Origin: a virus | Reading direction: 5' to 3' (one strand) | Virus record (IMG/VR): IMGVR_UViG_3300043411_001639 | Span: 32,001 to 96,000 of that record | DNA length: 64,000 bases | Shown here: in pieces, positions 23,226-50,187 of the stretch | Layout: each line of letters begins with the position of its first letter | Position numbering within the stretch: the first letter of the stretch is position 1 | The notes under the pieces: generated by a model | Seen by the model: the letters and a program-made list of their open reading frames with translations, nothing else | What the model was told of the DNA's origin: nothing | Database searches by the model: none | Position numbers and translations under genes: made by a program

Positions 23226-23966
23226 AAAATTTTTCTGGGAATTTTTCTATTTATGGGGACCTTTATGTTATATTTTTCTAAATGGTTGTTTGAAAACGAC
23301 AATATAATTGATGATTTAAATACAGTGTTTTCAATTCAAGAAACTATAAAAACTGTTGAACAACATGGTTTAGAGCAGCTTGGTTTAGGAAACAACGAAG
23401 GAACAACAAGAATTGTTTTTAAACATCCAAATAACAAACAAGTGATTAAAATACCAAGACAAACAACATATCTCAAATATAATTTTAATGAGATTAAATC
23501 ATTTGCTTGTCTTGGAAAAGAATATGCTGCTGAGATAACAGAGTTTCATCCTAAAGGTTATTGGTTGATAATGGAACTTGTTAAACCATTTAAAGATCAT
23601 CAAGAGTTTAATCAGAAACTCCAACAAGTTTTAAACTTACCAGATACTATCAATGACGAACGTTTTTTATATAAAGCAGTGGTTCAGTTTAAAGAACAAG
23701 AAAGATTAAAACTTTCAACTAAACTATGTCATTCAAGTGAATGGTTTAGAAAACTTACAACCAAACTTTCCAGTTGTGAAGTAGGAGGACAAGATTTAAA
23801 CTGGTTTAACTTTGGATTAAGAGAATCAACAGGTGAATTGGTTATGTTAGACTATGCTGATTTATTAACAAATCCGGCTGTTCAACAACCTTGTTCCATT
23901 TAAAACTAAAAAAGGTTCATAAAATAGGGCGGGTAATGCCTCTGAAAATTTTTCTGGGAATTTTTC
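23226..23966 (+). repeat. 22-bp exact repeat AAAATTTTTCTGGGAATTTTTC (23226-23247, 23945-23966)
   Basis: identical copies, each immediately before a TATTTA late-promoter-like motif. Confidence 0.85.
23265..23903 (+). CDS. protein kinase-like protein 1 with capsid-targeting-like N-terminus
   Basis: EGTTRIVF, VIKIP, NxNE, LIMELV, DLNWFNFG, LDYA; start MLYFSKWLFE. Confidence 0.8.
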   Translation: MLYFSKWLFENDNIIDDLNTVFSIQETIKTVEQHGLEQLGLGNNEGTTRIVFKHPNNKQVIKIPRQTTYLKYNFNEIKSFACLGKEYAAEITEFHPKGYWLIMELVKPFKDHQEFNQKLQQVLNLPDTINDERFLYKAVVQFKEQERLKLSTKLCHSSEWFRKLTTKLSSCEVGGQDLNWFNFGLRESTGELVMLDYADLLTNPAVQQPCSI

Positions 23967-23984
23967 ATATTTACCTCTAGTCTG

Positions 23985-24491
23985 ATGATAACATTACAAG
24001 AGTTTATATTTCTTCAAGAGGGAGACTTAAAACTAGTATCTCTTCATGGATGTGGGGAAGATAGTTTTGATATTGAACTTGATAATGATGAGGTTATAGA
24101 TTGCAATGATATAGCATCTAGTGTTGAGGAATTGTTTTACGATTCAAAGATTAGAATCATGAGGAATGAGAATCCTTATAATGCTATAATTGATTCTGGT
24201 ACTGGAAGGGTGATAGGGGCTAGTGTTATATCTTATGAACTACCAGAGGATTATGATGAATTTGAGCATGGTAATGGGGTTGTAACATTTAGTGTTGTGG
24301 TTGATCCAGAGTTTAGGGGACAGAGATTAGCTGAGAAGTTAATAAGGGATATAGTGAATAATCATAGGAGACAAGTTATCAAGGCTCAGGTTATTAATCC
24401 TATTATGGAGAAGATACTTATTAACTTAGGATTTGTTAAGGTTAGTGAATCAGGTTCTAGAGAAGGATTGGTTTATCAGTTAAAGAGATGA
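23985..24491 (+). CDS. GNAT acetyltransferase with capsid-targeting-like N-terminus
   Basis: VVVDPEFRGQRLA acetyl-CoA motif A; NPxxxxxLxNLGF; begins MITLQEFIFLQE. Confidence 0.85.
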   Translation: MITLQEFIFLQEGDLKLVSLHGCGEDSFDIELDNDEVIDCNDIASSVEELFYDSKIRIMRNENPYNAIIDSGTGRVIGASVISYELPEDYDEFEHGNGVVTFSVVVDPEFRGQRLAEKLIRDIVNNHRRQVIKAQVINPIMEKILINLGFVKVSESGSREGLVYQLKR

Positions 24492-25204
24492 ATAGTTTAT
24501 TTATGTTTGATCGGTTTTTGTTTGAGACTACTATTAATATCAATCCAGATAAAGTTATTTATGATCTTAAACAGGCAACAAGTTTTGGTGAGATTCAAGA
24601 GATAGGATATAAACTTAAACAGATAGGTGATGGTACTACTAGGAACGTGTATGACTTAGGAAGGAACCTTGTTCTCAAACTAGCAAAGTATCCTAATAAT
24701 AGTATCAGTAATTTAAAAGAGGTAGATTCATATCAGTGTTTAGGAAAAGAATACGCAGCACAGATAGTTGATTTTGATACAGAGAACTATTACTGGTTGG
24801 TTATGGAGAGGGTTAAAACTATAACAGCTAGAGAATTTCAGTCAAAGTTAACAGAGCTTATAGGATTTCCATTAACTCCAGAAGATATAGCATCTAGGTT
24901 TAAGACTGTTATTAGTAAAGAAGTTTATGTGGTGGGCGGTTATTATTATCTTCCACAGGTGTTACAACCTGGAAGATATCATTCCGGTACAGAGAGAGGA
25001 AGAGGATTAAGACAGTTACATGGTTTGTTATGCGGTCATAGTTCTTGGTTTAAGGAATTCAATAATAGATTAGTTAAGTGCAGAATTATGGCTGGTGATC
25101 TTGGATTTGGTAACTTTGGATTAAGACTGTCAACGGATGAGTTGGTGTTACTTGATTATGGGTTTGAGATGATTGAAGGGGATCAGATTGAATGTCATTC
25201 TTGA
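24488..25204 (+). CDS. protein kinase-like protein 2
   Basis: IGDGTTRNVY, VLKLA, NLKE, LVMERV, DLGFGNFG, LLDYG. Confidence 0.85.
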   Translation: MNSLFMFDRFLFETTININPDKVIYDLKQATSFGEIQEIGYKLKQIGDGTTRNVYDLGRNLVLKLAKYPNNSISNLKEVDSYQCLGKEYAAQIVDFDTENYYWLVMERVKTITAREFQSKLTELIGFPLTPEDIASRFKTVISKEVYVVGGYYYLPQVLQPGRYHSGTERGRGLRQLHGLLCGHSSWFKEFNNRLVKCRIMAGDLGFGNFGLRLSTDELVLLDYGFEMIEGDQIECHS

Positions 25205-25869
25205 TGAAGATATTGTTTTTTGAGGATAGGAACAGTGATGTTTTTGATGGTATTACTGAGTTTAGTTCTATTAAGAAGACATTGTTAGTTAACAAGTTTA
25301 AGTTGATAGGTCATGGTACTACTAGGGATGTTTATTCTGTTCCAGGTGATGATAGTATTGTTTTAAAGGTTCCAAGGTATCCAGATGCATTTGAGGTTAA
25401 CTTCAGTGAGTTTAAGAATTTTGGTTGTTTGGGGGAGGAGTATGCAGCTCGTGTAATAGATTGTGATACAGTTAACGGTTTATGGTTATTGATGGAGCGT
25501 GTTATAACATTTAATCATTCTGATAAATTTGATATTGAGGTTAGTAAAAGGTTAGGGTTTGAGTTTAGTAAAGGTGGAATGATTAAGAAGTTTGGATTAT
25601 CTCCTGATAGTATTGCGAGGTTTCCTTTATTATCTTCGGCATTTGCTCCTGGTGATTATGACAAGGGTATTAATTTAAAGGAATTACTTTGTAAGAACAG
25701 TAAATGGTTTAGGGAATTGAACAACAGGTTAATTGATTGTGATGTTTACGCGGAGGATCTTGATTTTAAAAACTTTGGATTAAGAAGAGATACTGGAGAG
25801 TTAATATTACTTGATTATGGATTTAGTGCTAGTAAAGATAGTACATTAGGGGTACAGTCAAAATGCTGA
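25192..25869 (+). CDS. protein kinase-like protein 3
   Basis: IGHGTTRDVY, VLKVP, NFSE, LLMERV, DLDFKNFG, LLDYG. Confidence 0.85.
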   Translation: MSFLMKILFFEDRNSDVFDGITEFSSIKKTLLVNKFKLIGHGTTRDVYSVPGDDSIVLKVPRYPDAFEVNFSEFKNFGCLGEEYAARVIDCDTVNGLWLLMERVITFNHSDKFDIEVSKRLGFEFSKGGMIKKFGLSPDSIARFPLLSSAFAPGDYDKGINLKELLCKNSKWFRELNNRLIDCDVYAEDLDFKNFGLRRDTGELILLDYGFSASKDSTLGVQSKC

Positions 25870-25943
25870 TGAATCTGAATGAGTTTATATTTTTAAAGGA
25901 ACTAAAGAGTTACTTGGTTAGACCTAAAAACTATCAGTATTAA
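25869..25943 (+). pseudogene. 24-aa remnant consisting mostly of a capsid-targeting-like tag (MNLNEFIFLKE..)
   Basis: TGATG coupling to kinase 3; near-identical to the GNAT N-terminus. Confidence 0.55.
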
Positions 25944-26362
25944 GAGTTGATGAATTGATTTAATTTATTATTAAACTCAGTATCTTCTGGAAGTTTTGTT
26001 ACTATGATTTCTGTTGGATTGGGTTTGAATCTCTTCTCACCTTTGTTTACTAGTTGGTTATAAGCTAGGAACTCAGTGCTGCTTAGAGCTGTTAAAATAG
26101 TTTCCAGTGCTGTTTTAAGATAGACTAGTACCTTTGGATTTTTATAATCTAGCAAAGAAAGATCTAGTGTTAGAGCGGACATTAATCTAAAGTTAAAGTT
26201 GATAGGATTGATATTTTCTTCTATTAGTATCAGGTTTTGACTGTTTAAATCTTTGATGTTGTTAGGGAAGTTCCTGTTTAAGAAACCTACCAAACCAAGA
26301 ACTAGGAATAGTCTTAGTTTTAGTGACAGCACTGACAGTTTGTTTTTTATTGAAGTTATCAT
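25940..26362 (-). CDS. hypothetical protein with N-terminal hydrophobic segment
   Basis: 140-aa ORF. Confidence 0.65.
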   Translation of the reverse strand: MITSIKNKLSVLSLKLRLFLVLGLVGFLNRNFPNNIKDLNSQNLILIEENINPINFNFRLMSALTLDLSLLDYKNPKVLVYLKTALETILTALSSTEFLAYNQLVNKGEKRFKPNPTEIIVTKLPEDTEFNNKLNQFINS

Positions 26363-26373
26363 ATCTATAGTAT

Positions 26374-27183
26374 ATGAGTATTATAGCTGGTAACACAAAA
26401 CATGAAATTCCTGGTCTGAAAACAATCTGTTGGGAAGACAGTGCTACAGATCAGATTAAATATATCACAGATAAATCTGATAGAAAACAATGGATCAGAG
26501 GTATTGTATGTCATACTAACAAAGGGAAGACAGGAGTTGTTTTACCTGGAGTTGGTAGTGATAGCGGTCAAGCTGTTAAACTTGCTAGATATCAGACAAA
26601 CACAGACAGACAAGTAAGCTGGGATTTTACAGAAGAACAGGATGGTGTTTGGTATATTCAGAACGATGTATTAAAACACTATAGTTGGCAAGCTGGAATG
26701 GTTAACGGGGTTACTTGTGGATTTGAGATGGTACAAGGAGAAGATGGATCTGTCTACGAGATACAGATAAAGAATGCTGTATTGTTTATAGATTTTCTTA
26801 CTGCACGTCTTGGGATACAGAGACAGATACCATGGGACAAGAAAAAGGATAAACCTGCTAGTAAACCTATAAAGAGAATCAGTGAAGACAACGGAGTTGA
26901 TGTTGTGGGTATTTATGGACATAGAAACCAAACAGACAACAGAGGTTTTGGTGATCCAGGTGATCATATATTTTATGCTCTAAGAGATGCAGGTTATGAA
27001 CTGTTTGACTATGACAACCAAGAAGATCTTAATACCTGGAAAACAAGACAGACAGAGGTTCTTAGTTTAACTTCTGGAGTTGATGGTGTTTGCGGTCCTA
27101 AGACTGTTGAACTGTTAAAACAACATGGTTATAAACACGGTATGTGGGTTTCAAGACCTATGGATAGTTTGATACAGTTATAA
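26374..27183 (+). CDS. N-acetylmuramoyl-L-alanine amidase (amidase_2) with peptidoglycan-binding tail
   Basis: IVCHT, WQAG..N, GFE, YGHR..DPG; DGVCGPKT. Confidence 0.85.
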   Translation: MSIIAGNTKHEIPGLKTICWEDSATDQIKYITDKSDRKQWIRGIVCHTNKGKTGVVLPGVGSDSGQAVKLARYQTNTDRQVSWDFTEEQDGVWYIQNDVLKHYSWQAGMVNGVTCGFEMVQGEDGSVYEIQIKNAVLFIDFLTARLGIQRQIPWDKKKDKPASKPIKRISEDNGVDVVGIYGHRNQTDNRGFGDPGDHIFYALRDAGYELFDYDNQEDLNTWKTRQTEVLSLTSGVDGVCGPKTVELLKQHGYKHGMWVSRPMDSLIQL

Positions 27184-27204
27184 CAACTAGGGTAAACTAT
27201 AATC

Positions 27205-27456
27205 ATGATACCCAACACTAAGATAAGAAGAGAGTTCCAGAGAGTTAGTACAGATCCTCTGTTGTTCCAAGAAGTTATAAACCACCTGATAGTTTGGAAG
27301 GATTTAGCTACTGGTTTAACAGAAGAAAAACTTGATAAATCTATTAGGAGAAAAATCTACAAACCAGGATCTGATATTGAGAGAACGATGAATGGTGAAG
27401 AATACTGGACAGATCCAGTTACAGGAATTGAGCATAGATTGGTAGCGGTGAATTAA
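27205..27456 (+). CDS. hypothetical protein
   Basis: ORF track. Confidence 0.65.
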   Translation: MIPNTKIRREFQRVSTDPLLFQEVINHLIVWKDLATGLTEEKLDKSIRRKIYKPGSDIERTMNGEEYWTDPVTGIEHRLVAVN

Positions 27457-27458
27457 TA

Positions 27459-28229
27459 ATGATGACTCAAGATGAACAAAAACTATTATCAACCTATGCA
27501 GTGCCTAGTTGGTTAGATCCTCTAACAGAGATCAAACAACCTGATCAACCTGAATGGTTTAGTGAGTTAACCAAGGAAAGAAAGGCAGTTGAGTTTATTC
27601 ATTTGTCTTTGTTTTGTTTATATCCATTAGTTAGCCACAATATTGAAAGAGCATTCCAGGTTTGTTCTAATTCAATCTCTGAAACTGGATGGGGTAAAAC
27701 CTGGAGAGGTTGGAATTTTGGTGGTTGGAAAGTAAGACAATCTTGGGTTGAACAACACAGACAAGATCATCAGGGTAAAAACCCTAGTTGGTTTAGAGCT
27801 TTAGGACACGTTAAAAGTGGTGATGCTCCTGTTGTGTTTTATAGAGGGTTTAACTCTCCAGAAGAGTTCTATCAAGAGTGGGTTGACAAATTTATTCCAA
27901 GAATATCTCCTATAGATCATAGATACCATAAAACAGGTAAACAGTTCTGGTCTACAGAAGATGAACAATGGTTTCTTGAGTTATGTTTAGCTGGATATAA
28001 AGGTGAAGTAACTCAGGCAAAACCTGAAAAATCTTATGGTGATTTTAAACAAATAGTTAAAAGAGCAAAAACTCTGTTTGTACAAGATGTTTTAAACTTA
28101 GAAACTGATGGCAGTTGGGGTAAGATATCCAAACAAACAAGCAAAGAAGCTAATCTTGTTGATTTATTGCAAGGACACTGGTTGAGTGTTAATGAATTTA
28201 AACTGTTAGTTGATGAACTGAACAGCTAG
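27459..28229 (+). CDS. GH73/FlgJ-like glucosaminidase with peptidoglycan-binding tail
   Basis: ETGWG..NFGGWK..YRGFNSPEE..AGY; DGSWG. Confidence 0.7.
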   Translation: MMTQDEQKLLSTYAVPSWLDPLTEIKQPDQPEWFSELTKERKAVEFIHLSLFCLYPLVSHNIERAFQVCSNSISETGWGKTWRGWNFGGWKVRQSWVEQHRQDHQGKNPSWFRALGHVKSGDAPVVFYRGFNSPEEFYQEWVDKFIPRISPIDHRYHKTGKQFWSTEDEQWFLELCLAGYKGEVTQAKPEKSYGDFKQIVKRAKTLFVQDVLNLETDGSWGKISKQTSKEANLVDLLQGHWLSVNEFKLLVDELNS

Positions 28230-28510
28230 GCTAGGAGAATTTTTTTCTTAGGAATGTTTTGTTCTGATATTTGAACAGGTACTTTTGATCTATGTTTACC
28301 CACTACAGCAACTAAATCTCTCATGAATTCATTGTTCTCTAGTTCTAGAGACAAGCAATAAATCAAATAAACCATCTGTCTTTGTGACACACCAAAGTTT
28401 TTAATTTCTTTTATTATTTCCCTAACAACTTGTCTTTTCTCTGCTGATAGTTCCATTTCAATGTTAGGTTTTATGATATTGTTATCATCTTCGTTGTTGT
28501 TATCAATCAT
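28226..28510 (-). CDS. conserved hypothetical phage protein
   Basis: REIIKEIKNFGVSQRQ..LSLELEN. Confidence 0.75.
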   Translation of the reverse strand: MIDNNNEDDNNIIKPNIEMELSAEKRQVVREIIKEIKNFGVSQRQMVYLIYCLSLELENNEFMRDLVAVVGKHRSKVPVQISEQNIPKKKILLA

Positions 28511-28512
28511 TA

Positions 28513-28959
28513 TCAGTCTTCCTCTATGGTTGTTGTTCTAACTTGGAACAACTCTTTTCCAGCTATTAACAAGTATTTTACTAGTGTTTTCCCATCAAAC
28601 TGTTCTTTCTTAAGAACTATTAATTTGCCCCATAGTTCATGTTCAAAGATATATTTTGCTTCTTGCCATTCTACCAATGAAACTTTGTTGTTTTCTAGAA
28701 GCTTTCTTACTTGTTCTGGAAGTTCTAGTTTCATCTCTTCAATATTTGGGAGCATAGGAAAATCTTGTGTATCTTTTCCTATTTTTACAGATTGAAATAT
28801 TTCTATTATTTTATGAATGTTGCCACAGTTAGGACATTGAACATAGGAAGGAACCACTTCTCCCTTATTATCTATTAGAGATAATACTATAAATTTAAAC
28901 AGGTCTTGGTGTTGAGGGAGTATACAAACACACCCAACAGAATGTTTGATGAAATCCAT
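28513..28959 (-). CDS. zinc-ribbon hypothetical protein
   Basis: CVC..CPNCG..H. Confidence 0.75.
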   Translation of the reverse strand: MDFIKHSVGCVCILPQHQDLFKFIVLSLIDNKGEVVPSYVQCPNCGNIHKIIEIFQSVKIGKDTQDFPMLPNIEEMKLELPEQVRKLLENNKVSLVEWQEAKYIFEHELWGKLIVLKKEQFDGKTLVKYLLIAGKELFQVRTTTIEED

Positions 28960-28964
28960 AACAA

Positions 28965-29279
28965 TTATTTGGTGGGTTTGGTAGTTTTAGCAGAAGGTAG
29001 TTCTTCTTGTAGTTCTTTAACGAAAGAAACAATAGTTTTGTCAATGTTTTTTTGGAAAGCATCTAGATTGTTAACTAACATAGTTTTATTTGAAGTTTTT
29101 ACCATTTCAAGAACATCAGAAATCAAGTTTCTTTGAGCTGGATCTGTATATTTTCTCTCTGTGATGGTTTTAATGTTTACAAAATCAAACGTACCTTCTG
29201 TTATTTGGTTTGTTAGTTTAAAGATCTCTGCTTCAATTTTTGATTTTAGTTGTTGTTTTTGTTGTTCTAGGGTTGACAT
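28965..29279 (-). CDS. hypothetical protein
   Basis: part of the reverse-strand operon. Confidence 0.7.
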   Translation of the reverse strand: MSTLEQQKQQLKSKIEAEIFKLTNQITEGTFDFVNIKTITERKYTDPAQRNLISDVLEMVKTSNKTMLVNNLDAFQKNIDKTIVSFVKELQEELPSAKTTKPTK

Positions 29280-29287
29280 AGTTTATA

Positions 29288-29812
29288 TTATCTTGTGTGT
29301 TTGTCAGCAATTGTAAAGGCTGCAATGCTATCAGGCTTTAATTTACAGTCAAAACCTGAACTTACAACATAGGATTTTAGGTTGTCTGAAAATCCAGAAG
29401 TAAATTGTTTTGCTTCTTTTGGTGAAGCATCAATATGAATCTCTGATTTAAGTCCTATTTGGTCTTGTATTTGAGTTGCTAGATCAATACTGATAGTAGC
29501 TTCTTCAAACATTCTTGCTTGTTGATTACCTCTATATTGTTCCCTTGGTTTCCAGTTGACAGAGTAGAAATAGTTTCCTCCTTTACCTACCGTATACAAA
29601 CAAACAACAGAAATAAACCTGAACCTTAATCCCATGATGTTACTATCTGTACCAACATAAAGTTTTAAGTCTTCTTCATGTTTTAGTTTTGTTTGAGTTT
29701 TCAACCATTCAAACAGTTGAGTTTTGGTTATAGTTTCACTATCAGGATTTAACCAGATACTCAAACTTTCTATTGGAGGCTCTATGATTACTGGTTTTTT
29801 AGTGTTCTTCAT
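29288..29812 (-). CDS. RNase H-like YkuK family protein
   Basis: YVGTDS, RMFEEA, EIHID, LKPDSxAAxxIAD. Confidence 0.85.
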   Translation of the reverse strand: MKNTKKPVIIEPPIESLSIWLNPDSETITKTQLFEWLKTQTKLKHEEDLKLYVGTDSNIMGLRFRFISVVCLYTVGKGGNYFYSVNWKPREQYRGNQQARMFEEATISIDLATQIQDQIGLKSEIHIDASPKEAKQFTSGFSDNLKSYVVSSGFDCKLKPDSIAAFTIADKHTR

Positions 29813-30476
29813 TGGTTTTACTGCTATCTGTTTTTAAATTTACGTAGGTATTTGGATTTTGTCTTGTTCTAACTAAAAAATTACTTTTGATATATTGACA
29901 GTAATAATCTTTGCACATGTTTGGACGTTGTGAATAAATTGTACATACTCCTGATTTAACATTCAAGAATTTACAAACAAACCTCTGTCCATATACTTGT
30001 ATACGTAACATTGGATAAGATTTTTCATTTCTAAACACTGGATGATCATTGAACCATGTTTCACCTAGTAACTTACCTTCTTCATAATCTATTACTATAT
30101 CTTCTCTTGACAAGAACATTTTCTTGGTTGTTTTAAACCATTGTCTTATGTCTTCAATCCATTGTTCGTCTACTTTACCTAAAACGTGTTCAAGATCATT
30201 TGGATCTAGCATACAACAAGCACATTTTAATCCTTCATAACCACAACAGTTTTCTAAACATGTTTTCTTTGCTACCTCATCAGTAAATCTTTGTTTGTGA
30301 GGATTGTTTTCCCATTGAGTTGCATCATTAATATAAAGAACAGGTAGGTGATATTTGTTTAATACTTTTTGTGGTTGTTCAACTTCATTAACAACTTCTA
30401 CAGGTTGTGATTCAGGAATTTTCCTAATTATCCTGTCTGTTGAGATTAACAATTTTCTTTTTTGAACATCAGGCAT
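29799..30476 (-). CDS. YkgJ-family Cys-cluster (Fe/Zn) protein
   Basis: CACC..CKFL..CTIYSQRPNMCKDYYC. Confidence 0.8.
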   Translation of the reverse strand: MPDVQKRKLLISTDRIIRKIPESQPVEVVNEVEQPQKVLNKYHLPVLYINDATQWENNPHKQRFTDEVAKKTCLENCCGYEGLKCACCMLDPNDLEHVLGKVDEQWIEDIRQWFKTTKKMFLSREDIVIDYEEGKLLGETWFNDHPVFRNEKSYPMLRIQVYGQRFVCKFLNVKSGVCTIYSQRPNMCKDYYCQYIKSNFLVRTRQNPNTYVNLKTDSSKTNEEH

Positions 30477-30498
30477 TTCTCACCACGATACTTATAGC

Positions 30499-31854
30499 AT
30501 GAATAACATGCAACTACAAGAAGAGATAAATTTAAACAGACTAAAACAAGAAACAGAGTTCAACAAAGTTTTCATAGAAAACAACTTGTTCTTTCTTGAT
30601 AATATTGAGGAACTCCAACAGAGTTTAACAGAACAGATAGAAACTGCTGAACAAGCTCTTGAATTTTATAATCTTCCAAAGATAAAAAATCATACTCAGA
30701 AACTTTGGGAACAACTAGCTGAATCTATTGCTCAAGGAGAACAAGAAAAAACCATAGGTTCTATCTGTGAGATATTTAATACTTATGCTTGTATAGCAGA
30801 TGAATTAGATGAAGAAAGAAAACTAGTTCTTGAAAGTAAAAACAACTGGTTTAAATTCAGCCTAAAACCTGAACTAGTACAAGAGTTAACTTCTACACTA
30901 GATTCCAGCCAGAAGCAACAACTGTCAGAACAACTAGAATCAGTTAAGCATCCAGTTTTAATGGAACAACTAGAGTTCTTACAAGAAAAAGTAACCACTG
31001 AAAACATTCAAGAACTACAACAAGCTGTTGCAGCATTAACCAAACTTGTTAAGAGTTTTCCTAAACTTGGTGAAATTAACAAACTTGTTCAGAAAACAAA
31101 TGTTGAGGTTGTTAACATGATCAGAAATAAAGGGTTTTTAAGCTCATTTAATCTTTCTGCTACAAGACTTGCTGGGAAAATAACATTTGTTTATGATGGT
31201 TTATATGAATTTTTTGTTCAAGATTTACCTTTAATACTAAATCTTCCTGATATGGAAGCAACAAAATTAAATCCAGATCAAGATTTATTAACATCTCTAG
31301 GCCAGAATTCAAAAAAAGTTGAAGAGATGATAAAAGGAAGAATTGAACCAACAACCCTATCAAAACTTCTACAATTTGTTGGTTCAGGTGGGACTAAACC
31401 TTCAATTGGATCAATGATTAATTTAAATCAATTTGCTAGAGAGATGCTAGAACTCACATACACTGAGATAGAGAGTTTAACAAAATATGGTCAAGCATTA
31501 CCAAAACCCCTAGCTGCTCCTAAACCAGAACAACCAAAGCCTGGAGAAACTCAACAACCTAGTGGTCAAGAACAACCCCTACCAACTATTCCTCCAGAAT
31601 GGAGTAATCAACCCACAACACCTGATAAACTTGAGACCATTAAAAAAGCTACCAAAGAAGATTCTGGACAGATGATCATTAATTTTAGAGATAATAAGGG
31701 TCAACCTCTTCCAGATAATGAAATGGTTAAATTATTAAAACTTCCCAAAGAACAACTGGTACAAATTCTTGATAAACTAGCAGAGAAGAACAATACACCA
31801 ACCCCCCCATCTTCACCACCTACCCCTAATGCTCCTGGTTCAACAGGAAACTAA
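30499..31854 (+). CDS. probable virion core/scaffold-like protein with Pro-rich C-terminus
   Basis: helical E/Q/L-rich sequence with many LxE sites; ATACTTA motif upstream. Confidence 0.55.
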   Translation: MNNMQLQEEINLNRLKQETEFNKVFIENNLFFLDNIEELQQSLTEQIETAEQALEFYNLPKIKNHTQKLWEQLAESIAQGEQEKTIGSICEIFNTYACIADELDEERKLVLESKNNWFKFSLKPELVQELTSTLDSSQKQQLSEQLESVKHPVLMEQLEFLQEKVTTENIQELQQAVAALTKLVKSFPKLGEINKLVQKTNVEVVNMIRNKGFLSSFNLSATRLAGKITFVYDGLYEFFVQDLPLILNLPDMEATKLNPDQDLLTSLGQNSKKVEEMIKGRIEPTTLSKLLQFVGSGGTKPSIGSMINLNQFAREMLELTYTEIESLTKYGQALPKPLAAPKPEQPKPGETQQPSGQEQPLPTIPPEWSNQPTTPDKLETIKKATKEDSGQMIINFRDNKGQPLPDNEMVKLLKLPKEQLVQILDKLAEKNNTPTPPSSPPTPNAPGSTGN

Positions 31855-33125
31855 ATATTTTCTAAAACTATAGCTCCACCAGTCTGATCAATCAACAATT
31901 TTTTAAGTTTCTCTCCAAACAACCAACCCAACTTTAAACTAACAACGGGAACTATCTTCTTGATAGATTTCAAGTATCCTGGTTTCACAACTCCATAGTG
32001 GTTCATTAAGACTGTTTTAACTTTTCTTAGAACTGTTTCTGTAATTGACTGATATTGTTTCAGTGTTAGAGTATCAGTTTCAGGGAACTTGAGAACTACA
32101 GTTTTTGACAACAAAGTTTTTACCCTTTTATCTAATAAATTCTTTATATCAGCAAGTTGATGGTTATCACGTTTTTGTATTAGTTCATTAACTGTTTGAA
32201 TAACATTATGTTCGGTTTTTTGATTAGTTATACAAACTTGTTTTGTTAATTTGTTAATCATGATACCATCAATCACTGGAAGTTCGGAATAGTCAGTCCA
32301 GATGATTTGTTGACCTTTTAAACTTGAGACAACATCCCCTCCACAAACTGCTGCCACATCATTTAAAACATTTAATCCCTCAAGGGAAGGTTCTAATTTT
32401 AATGGATAGATAAAAAATCTTTCTTGTTTGTTGTTAGCAAGAATAGTAGCTAAAACTTCTTCACTAAAACCTTGAGCAAATATAACCAGAGGTTGTTTCG
32501 TTTGAGAACATTTAGTAAATATATTCTCTAGTTCACTAACTCTTTCAATGCTCCCATCTACAAGAAGAACTTTTAGTGGTTCTTTAGATTCCCAACCATC
32601 AAAAAAAGGAAGTGGTTTCAAACTATCAAACCAGTAACCATTTTTAAGTTCAATAAAAAACTTGTTGGTTTTTGTTGTTTCAGGACTTATAACTATCTGA
32701 TATTCTAATCCAGCTAAAGTTATTACCTGCTCTAAAACTTTAACAAGTTTTTTGTGTTCTTGACATTCTTGTTTGATAATGGTTTTAATGGTTTTATTAG
32801 TTACAGGTTCAATCCAACGTTCAAGTTCTTTAGATACCTGTTCATAAGTTTTATTAGAAATAAATCCTAACAAGGTATAAAAACAACCTTCAGCTACTAA
32901 ATTTTCAGCTTTTAAAAGTTCGTTGATTAGAACAGAATTTAAAACCAATTCTGTTCTTGTGGTTGGTTTTAGAAGTTTTAATATTGTTTGATAATTGTTT
33001 GTGGATAATATTCCAGAGTTTTCAGAAAGTAGGGTTGAACGAGTAATTATTGTTTCTTTTAAAATGGATAGATTTAACAAGAAATAATTTTGAATATCAT
33101 CATTGTCTACGAACATAGTTTTCAT
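31851..33125 (-). CDS. divergent GroEL/Cpn60-like chaperonin
   Basis: PLVIFAQGFSEEVLATILAN and LNDVAAVCGGDVVS apical motifs; no GDGTTT. Confidence 0.75.
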   Translation of the reverse strand: MKTMFVDNDDIQNYFLLNLSILKETIITRSTLLSENSGILSTNNYQTILKLLKPTTRTELVLNSVLINELLKAENLVAEGCFYTLLGFISNKTYEQVSKELERWIEPVTNKTIKTIIKQECQEHKKLVKVLEQVITLAGLEYQIVISPETTKTNKFFIELKNGYWFDSLKPLPFFDGWESKEPLKVLLVDGSIERVSELENIFTKCSQTKQPLVIFAQGFSEEVLATILANNKQERFFIYPLKLEPSLEGLNVLNDVAAVCGGDVVSSLKGQQIIWTDYSELPVIDGIMINKLTKQVCITNQKTEHNVIQTVNELIQKRDNHQLADIKNLLDKRVKTLLSKTVVLKFPETDTLTLKQYQSITETVLRKVKTVLMNHYGVVKPGYLKSIKKIVPVVSLKLGWLFGEKLKKLLIDQTGGAIVLENI

Positions 33126-33151
33126 ATTTTATACTTAGATTTATATTCTAT

Positions 33152-33730
33152 ATGGCAGAAACAGATTTGACAATCAAAGTTTTCTCTGAACTACAAGAGA
33201 TAAAATCAGCTATTAAAAAAGGTCCTGATGGAATGGAAAAATTTGCTGTCAATGTAGAGCATCTAACTAAAAAAGTTGATGAAGGAGTTGCTGTAACAAA
33301 AGGGTTAGAATCAAAACTTTATGAACCAACAACAGGTATTTATGCTCGTTTACAATCTCTTGAGATTGAACAAAAAAACCATGTTATAGATGATGCTGCT
33401 GATCACCAAAAACACTATGATTTTCTAAAAGAAAACAATGAAAGATCAAAAAGAGAGTCGGCGGAGTTTGAAAAAGATCTTATAACTCTTAAAACAGATA
33501 TAAATAAAATACAAAACTCTGTTAATAAAATTGAAGAGAACAACACCGAAGATACTAAAAAAATTATAGTAAAAATTAAAGAAATCGGTGGAGGCGAGGG
33601 CTTAGTTGAACTGGAAACTATTATCAAATTCAAAAAAAATTTTGACAAACTGTTTTGGTTGCTTTTAACCGGGGTTATAACCACTCTAGGAAAATTCATT
33701 TTTGATCTCATCAATTCACATAATCGTTAG
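33152..33730 (+). CDS. coiled-coil protein with C-terminal transmembrane helix
   Basis: LFWLLLTGVITTLGKFIF. Confidence 0.7.
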   Translation: MAETDLTIKVFSELQEIKSAIKKGPDGMEKFAVNVEHLTKKVDEGVAVTKGLESKLYEPTTGIYARLQSLEIEQKNHVIDDAADHQKHYDFLKENNERSKRESAEFEKDLITLKTDINKIQNSVNKIEENNTEDTKKIIVKIKEIGGGEGLVELETIIKFKKNFDKLFWLLLTGVITTLGKFIFDLINSHNR

Positions 33731-33782
33731 ACATTTGTATCCAAACAGTATATAAATTAATACTAAAGGACACAAAAACACT

Positions 33783-38602: not shown

Positions 38603-38603
38603 C

Positions 38604-40793: not shown

Positions 40794-40803
40794 ACTCACT
40801 GGT

Positions 40804-41667: not shown

Positions 41668-41679
41668 AAGAAAACTACT

Positions 41680-43585: not shown

Positions 43586-44568
43586 ATGTTTTAGTGGTAG
43601 GAGGTGCAGGGTTTATAGGTTCTCACTTGGTTGAAGAGTTGTTGGAAACCCATTCAAACAGAGATCAACATCATGTATCAATAGTTGATGATCTTTCAAC
43701 AGGTTCTTTAAAGAATATTGAACATTTAAATTATTTTTCAAAATATAATATTGATCATAATAAAAACTATTCAAACTGTACTTTGCATAAAGAAAAAATC
43801 AATGATTATATTAAAGATCGTCCTAATGCTAAGTTTGACTATGTGTTTAGTCTGGCAGCCCAAACCAGTGTACCAGAAACAGTAGAAGATCCTGTAGGTT
43901 CAAACCATAAGAACGTTACAGAAACACTTGAGTTTGTTGATTGGGTTTTTACTAAATGTAAACCGAAGAAGTTTATCTGGTTTAGTTCAAGTGCTGTGTA
44001 TGGTAACAACATGTCTGTTAAAGAAAATCAACCATTCAAAAACAGCACTGTTAGTCCATATGCAATACAGAAAAAACTAATAGAGGATTACATAGAGTTT
44101 TATAGTAATAAACACAGAATACAATCCTTAGTTTTTAGACCTTTTAACGTGTTTGGAACAAGACAAAATCCTGATGGAAAATATCCAAACTTAATCTCTA
44201 GTTGGGGTAAAGCACTAGCAACTAATCAACCATTAATCATTTATGGGTCTGGAGAACAAAAAAGAGATTTTGTTTCTGTCAAACAACTAGTAAAAAAGGT
44301 TTTATCAGATGTTTCAGTCACTGATTATCCAACTTTTATTGTCAAAGATATTGGAACAGGATTTAATTTTAGTGTAAATGAGATTTTATCTTTAGTAAGA
44401 AGTGAAATTGATTCTTGCCTTTTAGTAAAGTTTTTTCCTGAAAGACTTGGAGAAGTTAAAGAAACTTTGTCTGCAACAAAACTAGATCATTCTTCAAACA
44501 AACTTAAAATATGTAAAGAGATAGTTGATACTCTAGAATGGTATATGGTAAACTATGCAGTTTCATGA
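43582..44568 (+). CDS. NAD-dependent nucleotide-sugar epimerase/dehydratase
   Basis: GGAGFIGSHL, SSSAVYG, YAIQK, RPFNVFG, RDF. Confidence 0.92.
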   Translation: MNVLVVGGAGFIGSHLVEELLETHSNRDQHHVSIVDDLSTGSLKNIEHLNYFSKYNIDHNKNYSNCTLHKEKINDYIKDRPNAKFDYVFSLAAQTSVPETVEDPVGSNHKNVTETLEFVDWVFTKCKPKKFIWFSSSAVYGNNMSVKENQPFKNSTVSPYAIQKKLIEDYIEFYSNKHRIQSLVFRPFNVFGTRQNPDGKYPNLISSWGKALATNQPLIIYGSGEQKRDFVSVKQLVKKVLSDVSVTDYPTFIVKDIGTGFNFSVNEILSLVRSEIDSCLLVKFFPERLGEVKETLSATKLDHSSNKLKICKEIVDTLEWYMVNYAVS

Positions 44569-45307
44569 AAAATTAGGGGTTTTAATTCCCGTACATAACG
44601 CAGAAGAAACAATAGTAAGAAGTCTTCGCTCCGTAGTTGATGCTTGTAAATTATCAAAGGTTGAAACCAAGATAGTAGTTGTTTTAAACGGCTGTACAGA
44701 TAACACTCTTATAGAGGTAATGAATTTTAGTGAATCTCAAACAAAAGATTCAAACATTGTTATTGAAGAAACATTTTCTGAAAAAGGTCTTGTTCCTGCT
44801 TTAAACAAGGGATTACAATCTCTAATTAACAAGGGTTGTTCATTAATAGCAAGACAAGACGCAGATGATAGTTGGCATAAAAACAAAATAGTTAAACAAC
44901 TAGCTTATCTTCAAGAACATAAAACTGTAGATATTTTAGGTACACAGATCAACTTAGTAACACCTGGAACATGGGAAACATTGGAAAGAACTCATAACCC
45001 AACAACTCATGTAAACATAAAAGAATGGTTACTAAGAGGACATAATCCTATAGCTCATCCTTCTGTTGTGTTTAGAACATCAATTTTGAATAAACTTGGT
45101 GGTTATCAAGACTTGTTTCCAATGGCAGAAGATCTATGGTTATGGAGCAGTGCTGTTATAGCAGGATATAATCTTGCTAATCTTCCAGATGTTCTTGTTG
45201 ATTATACCAGTGTTCACAATCCAAACTATAATCCAAAGTCACCAAAGGTATTGGCAAATTGTTTGGGGAATATATTAGGAGCTCATTTGAATGAATCACA
45301 ACAATAA
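44555..45307 (+). CDS. GT2 glycosyltransferase
   Basis: LIPVHNAE, IARQDADD, HPSV, AEDLWLW. Confidence 0.92.
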   Translation: MQFHEKLGVLIPVHNAEETIVRSLRSVVDACKLSKVETKIVVVLNGCTDNTLIEVMNFSESQTKDSNIVIEETFSEKGLVPALNKGLQSLINKGCSLIARQDADDSWHKNKIVKQLAYLQEHKTVDILGTQINLVTPGTWETLERTHNPTTHVNIKEWLLRGHNPIAHPSVVFRTSILNKLGGYQDLFPMAEDLWLWSSAVIAGYNLANLPDVLVDYTSVHNPNYNPKSPKVLANCLGNILGAHLNESQQ

Positions 45308-46040
45308 ACGAATTGCCTTGATGTTGATTGCTACGAACAAATATACCGACTTTGTTAAACCATTACTAAAATCAGTTGATAAATGGTTTTTAACAGATCA
45401 TAAAGTTGATGTGTATTTGTTTACAAACTTAGTTGATGAAAAAAGAGTGATTGACCTATTAGAAGAATATAGACCTATCAACAGAGTATCATTAGCGGTT
45501 AGAGAAATAGAGCATCAACCTTGGCCTATGATGACTTTATTGAGATACAACATGTTTAAGTCAATAGAACAAGAACTAGAAGGAAACTATGACTATATTT
45601 TCTACTCAGACGTAGATATGTTATTTGTTGATAAAGTTGGTGATGAGGTACTAGGTACAGGATTAACTGCTACTGTTCATCCTGGGTTTTACAACAAACC
45701 AAGAGAACAGTTTACCTATGAAACTAATCCTCTCAGTTACGCCTATATCCAACCAGACCAAGGAAGATTTTATTTTGCTGGAGGGTTTCAAGGTGGAACT
45801 ACTGAGTCATTTTTAACAGCTATCAGAGAATGTTCTAGTGGTGTTACTGCTGATCTTTCAAATAGAATCATAGCTGTTTGGCAAGATGAGTCACACTGGA
45901 ACAGATACCTTAGTGACTATAAAGGAAAATTAACTAAGTTGTCTCCTAGCTACTGTTTTCCTGAATCTTGGAATCATCTACCATTCCAAAGAAAACTGCT
46001 AGCACTAGACAAAGACCATAAAGAATTTAGGAAAGAATAA
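45291..46040 (+). CDS. GT6 (ABO-like) glycosyltransferase
   Basis: IATNKY, WP..TLLRY, DVDM, HPGFY, YFAGGFQGG, AVWQDESHWN, LSPSY. Confidence 0.92.
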   Translation: MNHNNKRIALMLIATNKYTDFVKPLLKSVDKWFLTDHKVDVYLFTNLVDEKRVIDLLEEYRPINRVSLAVREIEHQPWPMMTLLRYNMFKSIEQELEGNYDYIFYSDVDMLFVDKVGDEVLGTGLTATVHPGFYNKPREQFTYETNPLSYAYIQPDQGRFYFAGGFQGGTTESFLTAIRECSSGVTADLSNRIIAVWQDESHWNRYLSDYKGKLTKLSPSYCFPESWNHLPFQRKLLALDKDHKEFRKE

Positions 46041-46044
46041 TACA

Positions 46045-46668
46045 ATGGGATTTTACGATCAAACAGTTGAGTTAAAACAACTTAACACAGACAGAGTTGA
46101 ATGGTTTATAAGTTTGTGTAAAGATAAAAAAGTATTACATGTGGGCTGTGTAGATTGGCCTGTGTTTAATCCTGAGAGTAATTTACACATGACTCTTAGT
46201 AAACACACAAAGGAACTTGTAGGAGTTGATACAAACGTAGAAGGATTACAAGATTTACATGCATTTTGTGGTGGGAGATATCTAACAGAGTTAACGACTC
46301 TAGGTAAAGAGCAATTTGATGTTGTTCTAGTTCCAGAAACCATAGAACATGTTTTGAATGCTGGAGATTTCATGAAACAACTTATGTTGTTCTGTAAGTT
46401 TAAAACACTTGTCATCACAGCACCAAATGCTATGATGACTGAACCTTCTAAAGTATGGAACGATAGCAAGTATGACAAACTAGCTTCGGGTAAATGTCTG
46501 TTTACTGAGGTTGTACATCCAGATCATAAGTGTTGGTATAGTCCTTATACACTAATGAATCTCGTAAAAACTTGTTGTGGTGAACACTGGGAAATAGAAG
46601 AAGTAGGAACTCTCTGTAATACTTCAATGGTTTATGTAAAGGTAAAACAACGTGATGAAGAGTGGTAA
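46045..46668 (+). CDS. class I SAM-dependent methyltransferase
   Basis: VLHVGC, FDVVL..ETIEHV, ITAPN. Confidence 0.85.
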   Translation: MGFYDQTVELKQLNTDRVEWFISLCKDKKVLHVGCVDWPVFNPESNLHMTLSKHTKELVGVDTNVEGLQDLHAFCGGRYLTELTTLGKEQFDVVLVPETIEHVLNAGDFMKQLMLFCKFKTLVITAPNAMMTEPSKVWNDSKYDKLASGKCLFTEVVHPDHKCWYSPYTLMNLVKTCCGEHWEIEEVGTLCNTSMVYVKVKQRDEEW

Positions 46669-47545
46669 CAGACCAATAAAAATACTTGTTCTTGGATCAA
46701 CGGGTATGGCAGGACATACTGTGTTCAAATATCTTAGTGAAAATCCATTGTTTGAAGTCTATGGTTATAAAAGATTTAATATTGCGGGTTATGTTGCTAT
46801 GGGTGATGGTATTCAAAAAACAATAGAAAATGTTACCTTCAATTTATACCAAATAGAACCTGATTATGTTATCAACTGTATAGGACTTATTAAACAACGT
46901 GAAGGAACTAAGCTAGTAGATCATTTAGAAACTAATGGTATGTTTCCTGTTTGGTTATCATCAACATTCCCAAGAGTCAAGATCATACACTTAAGTTCTG
47001 ATTGTGTGTTCTCAGGAACCTTACCAGTTGGTTCAGCCTATAAGACACATGATTTTACTGATGCTTGTGACAACTATGGAATATCAAAAGCAATGGGTGA
47101 GAACTGTTGGAAACTAGGAGCTATGGTTCTTAGAACTTCAATCATAGGAATTGAGGAACAGAACAACAAAGGATTGGTTGAGTGGGTATTGAGAGAAAAT
47201 AAAGAAGTTCTTGATGGGTATACCAATCATTTATGGAATGGAGTATTAACAACTGAGTTAGCAAGAAAAATAGAACAGATTATAACTGAGGATAGGTTTG
47301 TTCCAGAACTATATCAACTAGGTTCACCAGAACTTGTATCAAAATATCGGTTAGTTGAAATGATAACAGCAATGTTATCTGATTTTGAAAAAACACAGTT
47401 CAAAAAAACCGTTAAACCAGTTTCAAAGCATTTTCCTATAAACAGAGTTCTGAAATCTGATTTCTCTGATGTAAAACCATTGTTTGAACAGTTTCTAGAT
47501 CACAAAAACTTCATGTTAAAACACAATATGGACAAGAGACCATGA
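46652..47545 (+). CDS. RmlD-like nucleotide-sugar 4-reductase
   Basis: LGSTGMAG, VINCIG, SSDCVFSG, YGISK, LRTSIIG. Confidence 0.88.
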   Translation: MMKSGNRPIKILVLGSTGMAGHTVFKYLSENPLFEVYGYKRFNIAGYVAMGDGIQKTIENVTFNLYQIEPDYVINCIGLIKQREGTKLVDHLETNGMFPVWLSSTFPRVKIIHLSSDCVFSGTLPVGSAYKTHDFTDACDNYGISKAMGENCWKLGAMVLRTSIIGIEEQNNKGLVEWVLRENKEVLDGYTNHLWNGVLTTELARKIEQIITEDRFVPELYQLGSPELVSKYRLVEMITAMLSDFEKTQFKKTVKPVSKHFPINRVLKSDFSDVKPLFEQFLDHKNFMLKHNMDKRP

Positions 47546-48384
47546 CAATAAAACTATATAGTATTTGTTTTAACAGACCTGATTTAATGCAGATGCAGGT
47601 TGAATCATTCAAGTTCTTTCTTAAGGACAAGCACGAAATAATATTTGTTAACAATGCACCAACAGACAACGTAGCTACTGAGATAAAAAAAGTAGCTGAC
47701 AGTCTGGAGTGCAGATCAATCAGAGTTCAGACAAATTTAGGTAACAATTGGCTTCCAGGTAAAAATCATGCTGATGCCATGAATCTAGTATTGAGAACAG
47801 AGTTTACCAAAGACCAAGGTACTGACTTAGTAGGATTCATGGATAATGATTTCTTTATGGTACTTCCTTTCTCTATTGAAGAACATATGAAAAATGGAGT
47901 AACAATGTCAGGTGTAAAACAAAGAAGAGAGAACTTCTACTATCTTACACCAAATTTATTATTCATGAATAAATCATTGTTACCTAATATTCAAAACATA
48001 GATCTTGAAGGAGTTCATATCAATGGAGTAGCTCTTGATACAGGTGGTGGACTGTATAACTACTTTGAAAAATATCCTCAAGTTAAAGCTGGAGTAAAAG
48101 GAATAGCACATACATGGGTTATGACTTCTGACAGACACAACACTCATAACATTCCAGATGAATTAATAGCAGAGTATAAAGATGACTATGTGTTAGAACT
48201 ATATCAAAACTCTTTCTTGCATTACTGTAGATCATCAAACTGGGATCAACAGAGTTATGATTTTCATAAAGAAAAGACAGGGTTTGTAAGGAAATTTGTG
48301 TATGGTTCAATGAGTGGTTTAATCCACCCAAAGAAACTAGATTTCCAGATTGTTGATTCAATATTTGGATGGGATGGACTATGA
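47542..48384 (+). CDS. GT-A-like glycosyltransferase
   Basis: FMDNDFF (DxD), LDTGGG, FLHY..SSNW. Confidence 0.65.
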   Translation: MTIKLYSICFNRPDLMQMQVESFKFFLKDKHEIIFVNNAPTDNVATEIKKVADSLECRSIRVQTNLGNNWLPGKNHADAMNLVLRTEFTKDQGTDLVGFMDNDFFMVLPFSIEEHMKNGVTMSGVKQRRENFYYLTPNLLFMNKSLLPNIQNIDLEGVHINGVALDTGGGLYNYFEKYPQVKAGVKGIAHTWVMTSDRHNTHNIPDELIAEYKDDYVLELYQNSFLHYCRSSNWDQQSYDFHKEKTGFVRKFVYGSMSGLIHPKKLDFQIVDSIFGWDGL

Positions 48385-49418
48385 CATTTATACCAGAACT
48401 AGTAGGTGAAAAAATATTGATTTTTGGAGGAGCAGGTTCACTAGGAACTAAACTCTGTCAGACATTTCTCTCAAAAAGAAAAAATCAAGTTTATTCTTGT
48501 TCAAGAGATGAAGCTAAACAATGGCAACTAAAACAATTGTTCAGTCAACAAGACAGAGAGTTATTAACTACTGGAATCTGTGACATCAGAGATATCAGAC
48601 AGGTTGAGTCAATTATATTTGCTATTAAACCAAGCATTATTATAATAGCTTCCGCTATGAAACAGGTTGACACTTGTGAAGCATTTCCGTATGAATCTGT
48701 TAAAACTAACGTTGATGGAATAAATAATATACTAGAAATAGTAAGGAAATATTCAGACCTAGCAGATCAACAATATACCAAACGACTTACCGTTTGTTTT
48801 ATATCAACAGACAAAGCTTGTAGTCCAGTAAACACCTACGGAATGTGTAAGAGTATTGCTGAAAGACTAGTACAAAACCAAGCTGTTGAAAACAAAAAAG
48901 TGAAGTATCTCACAGTAAGATATGGTAACGTAGTAAACAGTAAAGGAAGTATAGTTCCACTGTTACAAGAACAACTTAAGAATCCTGGTTTTAATCTTAC
49001 TCTAACAGATCCAAGAATGACTAGGTTTATGATGACAATGGAAGAATCTGTTGAGTTAATCATTCAATCAATCTACTCAGGTTCATCAGGTGATATCTGG
49101 ATTCCTAAACTTGACTCAATGTCAATGTCAGATCTATTCCAGTGGTTTAGTAATAAACATACTAGGAAAGTTGAAATAACAGGCATTAGACCCGGCGAGA
49201 AAATTCATGAAGTATTATATAACCAAGATGAGTCAAGATATATTCAAGAGTTTTCTAGAGGCTCCAGGGCACCTTACTACGTCATCAATAAAAATAAACT
49301 GAGTGATACAAAAGGTTTTAAACTCCATGAGTTTTCTTCTGAACACAACGTGATATCACCAGAGGTTCTAGCTAACAGACTTGAAGAGTTTTTTAAATCT
49401 GGAAGTTATCAACGATGA
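48381..49418 (+). CDS. UDP-GlcNAc 4,6-dehydratase (FnlA/PseB/CapD family)
   Basis: GGAGSLG, SRDE, STDKA..PVNTYG..K, RYGNV..SKGS, MTRF, GIRPGEKIHE. Confidence 0.92.
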   Translation: MTFIPELVGEKILIFGGAGSLGTKLCQTFLSKRKNQVYSCSRDEAKQWQLKQLFSQQDRELLTTGICDIRDIRQVESIIFAIKPSIIIIASAMKQVDTCEAFPYESVKTNVDGINNILEIVRKYSDLADQQYTKRLTVCFISTDKACSPVNTYGMCKSIAERLVQNQAVENKKVKYLTVRYGNVVNSKGSIVPLLQEQLKNPGFNLTLTDPRMTRFMMTMEESVELIIQSIYSGSSGDIWIPKLDSMSMSDLFQWFSNKHTRKVEITGIRPGEKIHEVLYNQDESRYIQEFSRGSRAPYYVINKNKLSDTKGFKLHEFSSEHNVISPEVLANRLEEFFKSGSYQR

Positions 49419-49425
49419 GAAAAGT

Positions 49426-50187
49426 TCAATCTCTATCAGCAAACCCACCAGCCCAACCAAGATCAAGTATTTTTGGTCCTTTGGCCCAATGCTCAATTCT
49501 TTGAAGATCTCCCATTCCTAGATCATAGGTTGCTATCAAATCAAGGAACTCAGTTAAAGCTCTGTTCTTAGTATAGGGAGTAACATCAACTTCAGAACAG
49601 TCTTTTTCACTAATTTCATAATGATATTCTTCTTCAGTTTCTTCATATTCTTTCTGAAGTTCTTCTTCTGTTTTCTGTCTACCAAACAAGTTACAGATAA
49701 CTTGTTCAAGACTAGCTTCTCTGTCTCTTCTTGATTCTTCAACTATCTCAAAGAACGTATAAAAATCTATTCCTGTTTCTTGTTCAAATTCTTCCTCTGA
49801 TTCAAGAGGTATTAGTTTTTGAACAACTATCCACAGGTCATCTTCATGTGACACAGGATTGCTAGCAGCAAAATATCTGGTATCTATGTTGTGATATATC
49901 TGAGATTCTTTTTCATTCTGTCTAATTCCAGACCTACTCTTTGCTACTTTTAATACCCAGTATTCATCAATCTCATATACTGTTCTTGAACTACCTTGGT
50001 TGATGTATTTAAATCCATTAGCATCAAGCCATTGAGTTATCTCTTGAACTGTCTTCATCTTACTGATTCCATCAACAACAGTTTTAACTTTTGAATCATT
50101 TTCTTCCATGTAGTCTTCTGGATCATCAAACCAGTTAACAAAAGTTTGATAGTAAGCCTCAAGGAAAATAAACTTGTTGAATTTCAT
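49426..50187 (-). CDS. protein kinase-like protein 4 with capsid-targeting-like N-terminus
   Basis: QGSSRTVY, VLKVA, QNEKE, GDL, ILDLG; begins MKFNKFIFLE. Confidence 0.78.
   Translation of the reverse strand: MKFNKFIFLEAYYQTFVNWFDDPEDYMEENDSKVKTVVDGISKMKTVQEITQWLDANGFKYINQGSSRTVYEIDEYWVLKVAKSRSGIRQNEKESQIYHNIDTRYFAASNPVSHEDDLWIVVQKLIPLESEEEFEQETGIDFYTFFEIVEESRRDREASLEQVICNLFGRQKTEEELQKEYEETEEEYHYEISEKDCSEVDVTPYTKNRALTEFLDLIATYDLGMGDLQRIEHWAKGPKILDLGWAGGFADRD

Follow-up and report, generated by a model that had tools for sequence, protein, structure and literature searches.

A putative T4-like capsid-targeting leader shared by kinase-fold, acetyltransferase and other proteins of an uncultured jumbo phage

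Few of the proteins that phage T4 packages in its head are understood, examples being IPI, which acts against a restriction enzyme, and Alt, which acts on RNA polymerase. The T4 capsid-targeting sequence (CTS) is MKTYQEFIAE (PMC8442874), in which residues 4 and 7 serve targeting and residues 8 and 10 serve processing; T4 propeptides have 7–19 residues, cleavage by gp21 occurs after L/I-X-E, and gp21 itself has an LIE site near its N-terminus, LIE-9 (PMC9026906). The ADP-ribosyltransferase Alt is carried in the head, from which it is ejected into the host cell; it is non-essential, is present in ~40 copies and has a 7-residue propeptide cut by gp21 (PMC9026906). The internal-protein loci of T-even phages are polymorphic, with diverse proteins that have only the CTS in common, and the CTS/gp21 mechanism, these polymorphic CTS-bearing proteins and the packaged enzyme Alt can all be regarded as established (PMC3012670, PMC9026906). 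We analyzed a stretch of 64,000 nucleotides (the window), which is bases 32001–96000 of the IMG/VR phage record IMGVR_UViG_3300043411_001639 (156,732 bp with 262 open reading frames, ORFs), and in which seven ORFs start with a hydrophobic leader of 10–13 residues with Glu at its end, reading [FW]LFE or FIFL(x)E. It is reasonably likely that this shared N-terminus is a capsid-targeting propeptide of T4 internal-protein type, and the tagged proteins, judging from their sequences, are probably packed into the head in advance and delivered with the DNA.

On the plus strand the leader begins a kinase-fold protein, K1 (23265..23903, MLYFSKWLFE), a GNAT-type acetyltransferase (23985..24491, MITLQEFIFLQE), two further kinase-fold proteins, K2 (24488..25204, MNSLFMFDRFLFE) and K3 (25192..25869, MSFLMKILFFE), and a 24-aa remnant ORF (25869..25943, MNLNEFIFLKE); on the minus strand it begins a 216-aa protein that we call the 7705 protein (7055..7705, MSLVLANWLFE) and a divergent kinase-fold protein, K4 (49426..50187, MKFNKFIFLE). 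All seven N-termini named in a preliminary description of this DNA were found in the sequence at the positions given there, with two start sites that we would revise. K2 had been started at 24503 (MFDRFLFE) and K3 at 25204 (MKILFFE), and 24488 and 25192 are likelier because there each start overlaps the upstream stop codon, as an ATGA with the GNAT stop in the case of K2, and because the orthologs in a close relative, L040, support them, that of K2 starting alike with MTSLLYQILFE; with these starts all of the leaders have 10–13 residues. The K1 start at 23265 is likelier than an ATG at 23253 since the latter overlaps the TATTTA element described below.

Over the record the motif is enriched at N-termini. 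Among ~49,700 ORF residues there are 10 sites of the motif in its strict form, [FWI][IL]F[FL]?.?E, and seven of these sites are N-terminal, being those of six tagged genes and of the prohead protease itself, a count that includes K1, whose ORF the gene caller had extended upstream. A looser motif has 14 N-terminal and 19 internal sites over the 262 ORFs (binomial P 2e-7), and thus the genome-wide scan that the preliminary description had proposed did find the leader enriched at N-termini. Similarly, in a complete uncultured relative of 390,884 bp with terminal repeats (G007), 13 of 48 occurrences of [FLIVWM][ILV]FE are N-terminal (P 9e-7), and six of seven kinase paralogs are tagged. The idea that unrelated enzymes share the leader was accurate for the GNAT, the 7705 protein and the remnant ORF, which have only the leader in common, but less so for the kinase-fold proteins, as K1, K2 and K3 are paralogs (33–39% identity) and K4 is a remote relative with kinship to them in the N-lobe only (E about 1e-8), so that there are about four to five independent cases of the leader, not seven.

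The likeness to the T4 CTS system lies in a short putative propeptide ending in hydrophobic-x-Glu, a gp21-family protease in the genome and unrelated proteins behind a common leader. Residues 3–8 of the GNAT leader (M-I-TLQEFI-FLQE) read TLQEFI where T4 has TYQEFI, and the MKTLKEF... leaders of some members of the kinase family also resemble MKTYQEFIAE. Five of the seven leaders (K1, GNAT, K2, the remnant and the 7705 protein) end in L-x-E, and those of K3 and K4 in F-x-E. In T4, exchange of the leader Glu for Asp prevents processing and leaves targeting intact. The core of the present leaders, in contrast to the T4 CTS, is rich in Phe ([FW]LFE or FIFLxE), and the system proposed here is predicted from sequence.

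The source of the record can be assigned to the large uncultured T4-type jumbo phages; completeness is 43% (CheckV), GC content is 35%, and a nucleotide search of the tagged region against cultured phages gave no match. Outside the window, the same record encodes a T4-type head module with portal (phrog_213), protease, capsid and two sheath paralogs. The gp21-family prohead protease (Peptidase_S77, genome 135063–135683; PF03420 76.5 bits against a cut-off of 27, phrog_207 E 5e-47) has LLE at residues 7–9 of its own N-terminus, resembling LIE-9 of T4 gp21, and the gp23-like capsid protein (646 aa, phrog_138; 43% identity to that of Flavobacterium phage vB_FspM_immuto and 54% to that of G007) has a VLQE|A site of L-x-E type near residue 68. 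A gp21-type protease was present in four of four large relatives tested; a search in the short fragments L007 and L009–L011 found none and is uninformative, as these fragments are just 11–17% complete.

Comparison of orthologs suggests that the peptide is what has been retained. All 24 aligned GNAT sequences have the leader, in the form QEFIFLQE or in the form xLxx[IL]LFE and looser variants, with drift exemplified by QEFIFLQE, SSLLFEE and YPILFEE, and the 23 GNAT orthologs keep it at 52–93% identity in the mature domain. Orthologs of K3 start with MIKLFRFLFQE, MLNLNRFLFLE and MSLMKLLFLE, and an ortholog of the 7705 protein (P0184) retains NQFLFE. The residue pattern of two hydrophobic positions, Phe and then Glu is thus kept while codons change, which argues for selection on the peptide. 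The similarity could instead lie at the level of DNA or mRNA, as a translation-initiation or recombination cassette whose peptide has no role; a 12-mer, TGGTTGTTTGAA, is common to K1 and the 7705 gene, the operon genes overlap start to stop, and near-identical leader arrays in the relative L046 could promote recombination. This would not account for a pattern that persists across orthologs through changes of both residues and codons, and we consider it very improbable.

The leader extends well beyond the window. A kinase-family profile search of 1.84 billion representative proteins yielded 757 clusters (two narrower kinase alignments, A2 and A4, had found one and three related loci), and among 108 single-domain representatives hydrophobic-x-Glu was found within 18 residues in 87, compared with 33% of control windows, while strict leaders, either MxLxx[IL][IL]FE or the T4-like MKTLKEFxxWLxEE, were found in 46, compared with 0.3% of control windows. 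Other cargo accompanies the kinases: L007 has six tagged genes, one of them a K4-type kinase; L012–L015 each have a GNAT and two or three other tagged genes; and L046 and L051 each have approximately 10 consecutive genes starting MKL[SY]xILFE (nine with Lys-Leu, one with Arg-Leu), including a kinase, a GNAT and a NUDIX hydrolase (PF00293, E 1e-14). Such clusters of unrelated genes under one leader, ten in a row in L046, with fast turnover and gene decay, are like the T-even internal-protein loci; they differ in occurring in a very distant lineage of uncultured jumbo T4-type phages and in encoding recognizable enzymes (kinase, GNAT, NUDIX).

A short element upstream of several tagged genes also occurs before virion genes. 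K1 is preceded by AAAATTTTTCTGGGAATTTTTC followed by TATTTA (23226..23253, plus strand), the TATTTA ending 11 nt before the ATG at 23265; a search of the whole record found a second copy of the element, ending in ATATTTAC, before the GNAT operon (23945..23974, plus strand), and no other, so that the two copies of the 22-nt AAAATTTTTCTGGGAATTTTTC precede K1 and the GNAT only. The element is fully conserved before the GNAT of L040, with differing flanks. ATATTTAC is also found before K4 (50194–50199, minus strand), 7 nt upstream of the start. A motif TANTTA had been described directly upstream of four tagged genes; this applied to the K1, GNAT and K4 units, where TATTTA stands 7–12 nt before the ATG, and not to a fourth, as the 7705 gene has TATTTA only ~105 nt upstream, and K2, K3 and the remnant are downstream of the GNAT in an overlapping operon. 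TATTTA within 40 nt upstream was found for three of four tagged units and for 10 of 258 other genes (Fisher P 4e-4), and of about 11 TATTTA sites in non-coding DNA within 40 nt of a gene start in the whole record, seven precede virion genes, the virion genes so marked including portal, terminase, tail tube and other late genes. In G007, six of 16 tagged and 29 of 524 other genes have it (P 2e-4), and the same late genes carry it. The early-type cassette, GTTGCAAC(C)-N11-12-(C)TGCTAGAGT, is sigma-70-like and occurs in ~26 copies in the record, on the plus strand and before small genes; as had been described earlier, none precedes a tagged gene. These cassettes occupy 7.4–54.2 kb of the genome (window 1257–22214), the last, at window 22214, being just before K1.

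Lying so close to start codons, TATTTA could be a promoter or a signal at the mRNA level. Two other promoter types were considered. The T4 late promoter sequence, TATAAATA, is not in use here, as none of its eight copies stands before virion genes; a Bacteroidota-type promoter (TTTG...TAnnTTTG), suggested by the Flavobacterium phage that has the closest capsid protein among cultured phages, was without enrichment, and the early promoters are sigma-70-like.

The leader might also be an amphipathic signal with another purpose, for example localization to a membrane or compartment, recognition by a GroEL-like chaperonin, or stability, in which case the proteins would never be packaged. The leader is indeed hydrophobic, residues 2–15 of K3 are helical in the AF2 model (pLDDT below 50 for residues 1–5), and a GroEL-like protein is encoded in the window at 31851–33125. 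This explanation seems to us quite unlikely, as it would leave unexplained the close match of the leader to the tested T4 CTS, its ending in a protease cleavage motif, the gp21-type protease in every large relative with tagged genes, and an upstream element common to tagged and virion genes; as a secretion signal the leader is too short and is acidic at its end. The GroEL-like chaperonin gene itself is on the minus strand (phrog_5725, E 2e-13).

Several observations weigh against reading the leader as a capsid-targeting propeptide. At 6–26 nt from start codons, TATTTA as a -10-type promoter would give nearly leaderless mRNAs. The P3 position of the predicted cut site is Phe in K3 and K4, and not Leu or Ile. 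The mature proteins are acidic, with pI 4.4–6.1, whereas T4 internal proteins are small, basic and DNA-binding, and the cargo here consists of enzyme folds of 17–29 kDa. About a fifth of the kinase-family representatives (21 of 108) lack the leader. Finally, the sole cultured homolog found, g442 of Yersinia phage fHe-Yen9-04, is leaderless and situated among small genes and tRNAs; tblastn of K3 and two family members against cultured phages matched only fHe-Yen9-04 and fHe-Yen9-03 (g442/g446), and no paper was found describing a virion proteome that covers the fHe-Yen9 homolog.

All four K proteins match phrog_4301, a family of unknown function (K1 E 4e-13, K2 E 1e-11 and K4 E 1e-13), with K1 at E 4e-53 and K4 at E 4e-22 to the kinase-family profile. 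Every one of the 50 Foldseek matches and 50 VIA-align rows listed for the AF2 model of K3 (pLDDT 82) is a kinase or an aminoglycoside phosphotransferase; OspG, NleH2 and PRPK rank highest among the Foldseek matches listed and are also within the VIA-align matches, where Z reaches 7.4, a moderate value (<8). Alignment of 111 family members shows three invariant residues (K3 numbering), K55 as the beta3 Lys, E69 as the alphaC Glu and D204 as the DFG-like Asp, and Gly-loop G38 and the catalytic loop D185-x4-N190 are at least 90% conserved; relatives keep the motifs DLxxxN or D[FL]xxxNWG, and DYG. In K4 and its closest relative (L007:11435-12274, leader MSFFVDLIFE) the catalytic-loop Asn is replaced, giving DLxxx[ED]HW (DLxxxEHW in K4). 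The earlier call of four kinases with these residues therefore holds, K1–K3 having all of them and K4 keeping the Lys, the Glu and both Asp residues, though without the loop Asn. Because of the kinase fold and the conserved catalytic residues, the K proteins are very probably active phosphotransferases, with a fold that does not tell protein from small-molecule substrates. Some long multi-domain relatives of the kinase family (P0010, P0017, P0072, P0147 and L009:17468-20020) have an EEANAVGAGQIVGSQ-like motif near the N-terminus, possibly a separate signal, for processing or for targeting, that belongs to another lineage of phages.

Assignment of the GNAT draws on several matches that agree with one another. 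The PF00583 score of 21.1 bits is marginal, the cut-off being 20.7, four other GNAT models match weakly, the PHROG acetyltransferase match has E 5e-4, and six weak PDB profile matches (E 0.05–0.8) are all GNATs. Where acetyl-CoA motif A should read Q/R-x-x-G-x-G/A, the protein has FRGQRLA, with the Arg, Gly and Ala present and the central Gly changed to Arg, and orthologs retain this segment. For the 7705 protein, Pfam, PHROGs, NCBIfam, ESM Atlas and a PDB profile search all gave no match, and its AF2 model (pLDDT 40) is unusable. The GNAT-K2-K3 genes show a very strong GC skew of +0.4 to +0.67 (a large excess of G over C in the coding strand; window 23900–25900), compared with ~0–0.15 for the neighboring K1.

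The 24-aa ORF had been taken as an orphan tag and as a sign that cargo is swapped behind the tag, which comparison with L040 did not bear out. In L040 the gene after K3 is longer by 360 bp and consists of pieces of 60 aa and 98 aa in two frames, the ends of which correspond to the two termini of an L045 protein of 418 aa that has an HELGH (HExxH) motif and the leader MHLLSLLFLTE. In the window a further deletion of 360 bp at ~25896 relative to L040 has joined the leader in frame to the last 13 residues of the lost cargo. We therefore dropped cargo swapping in favor of an in-frame deletion remnant, and the ORF thus records the decay of a tagged metalloprotease-like cargo. Nucleotide identity to L040 over window 23920–27300 is 77.5% in the GNAT-K2-K3 cassette and 96.9% from the 3' end of the remnant ORF onward, a sharp step of the kind expected if the cargo genes evolve fast or have been exchanged by recombination. 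Just past the remnant, on the opposite strand, is a 140-aa ORF (window 25940–26362, minus strand) that is ~97% conserved in L040 and for which family searches gave no match.

This comparison also bears on whether the proteins leave the head. The leader could target them to the prohead core where, rather than being injected effectors, they would work or fill the core, for example by modifying the protease, scaffold or internal proteins while the head matures; in T4, IPIII has an effect on head assembly (PMC9026906), the record has the protease, scaffold-like proteins and a second leader family (MKITESSLKAIIKE, MKITIKELKAIIKE) in the head and tail module, and acidic mature proteins are a poor fit to DNA-bound cargo. 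Against this, the cassette diverges much faster than its flank, cargo sets vary among relatives, and one cargo has decayed without loss of the phage; host-directed genes in an arms race fit the divergence and variation better, and we regard a role confined to the core as unlikely.

If the leader is a capsid-targeting propeptide, the tagged genes would be expressed along with virion genes, and the hydrophobic leader of 10–13 residues would let each protein dock to the scaffolding core while the prohead assembles. The gp21-type protease would then cut after the Glu of (L/F)-x-E, and the mature enzymes, predicted to be four minimal kinase-fold proteins of 23–29 kDa, a GNAT of 17.6 kDa and the 7705 protein of 24 kDa, would remain in the DNA-filled head and exit with the DNA at infection. 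We infer all of these steps, from docking and cleavage to retention in the head and ejection, and likewise the activities of the enzymes and their targets, and action before any phage gene is expressed would be speculation. The packaged arsenal of enzymes envisaged in the preliminary description is partly supported in silico by the protease, the CTS likeness, the conserved leader, the unrelated cargo and the shared upstream element; its use of the orphan tag as evidence of cargo swapping is not supported.

T4 Alt shares with the proposed system a host-modifying enzyme in the head that is processed at a short N-terminal propeptide; it differs in carrying out ADP-ribosylation as opposed to the presumed phosphorylation and acetylation, in having a C-terminal cut as well, and in having no sequence relation. 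OspG and NleH (Shigella, E. coli) and PRPK/Bud32 have in common with K3 a small kinase core of ~170–220 residues with the Lys, Glu, catalytic Asp-Asn and DFG-like Asp; TM-scores are low (0.36–0.46), with Z ~6–7 and 15–20% identity, a like fold does not show a like substrate, and OspG and NleH are delivered by type III secretion and not by a phage head. The phage kinase T7 gp0.7 acts on host proteins at an early stage of infection. It is not a packaged protein, being produced from an early gene once entry has taken place, and it can be likened to the K proteins by description only.

New here are the lineage (jumbo T4-type phages, uncultured and very distant), a putative leader that is rich in Phe, and the cargo predicted for it, which combines minimal kinases of a large family with GNAT, NUDIX and HExxH proteins; no paper describing packaged phage kinases was found in the literature searched. 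Kinase-fold proteins are the commonest predicted cargo in this lineage. We would suggest only tentatively, and with more doubt than confidence, that the phrog_4301 proteins (757 clusters) are a widespread, hitherto unrecognized class of capsid-delivered minimal kinases of T4-type jumbo phages, made in advance and injected with the DNA so that host targets in defence or takeover are phosphorylated ahead of any transcription; they would be a phage counterpart of OspG/NleH, with acetyltransferases, NUDIX hydrolases and metalloprotease-like proteins as tagged companions. Packaged proteins that are injected act before any phage gene is read and so would be the first move of the phage against host defences. 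If the tag works as in T4, then distant T4-type phages load whole sets of enzymes by the same system, an unnamed family would gain a testable function, and leader plus protease would be a simple sequence rule by which the virion cargo of uncultured phages could be predicted. It could also become possible to load foreign proteins into phage heads with these leaders as parts.

Several further features were noted elsewhere in the record. The second leader type is on two otherwise different proteins, at genome 135688–136086 and 153774–154334, one directly after the protease gene and the other between sheath and tube genes; K(T)FI(K/Q)E leaders similar to MKITESSLKAIIKE and MKITIKELKAIIKE occur on some kinase-family members elsewhere. 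A further candidate tagged gene, at genome 142356–143069 (minus strand), adjoins a head-tail adaptor-like gene and encodes a protein of 237 aa that starts with MLVVLYNLIFED and had no match in family searches. Directly after the major capsid gene is a 584-aa homing endonuclease with GIY-YIG and HNH matches (genome 140619–142373). Before the window, at genome 2–27 kb, there are many small early proteins with an N-terminal xLKPGD[IL][IV] motif, which are probably a single paralog family.

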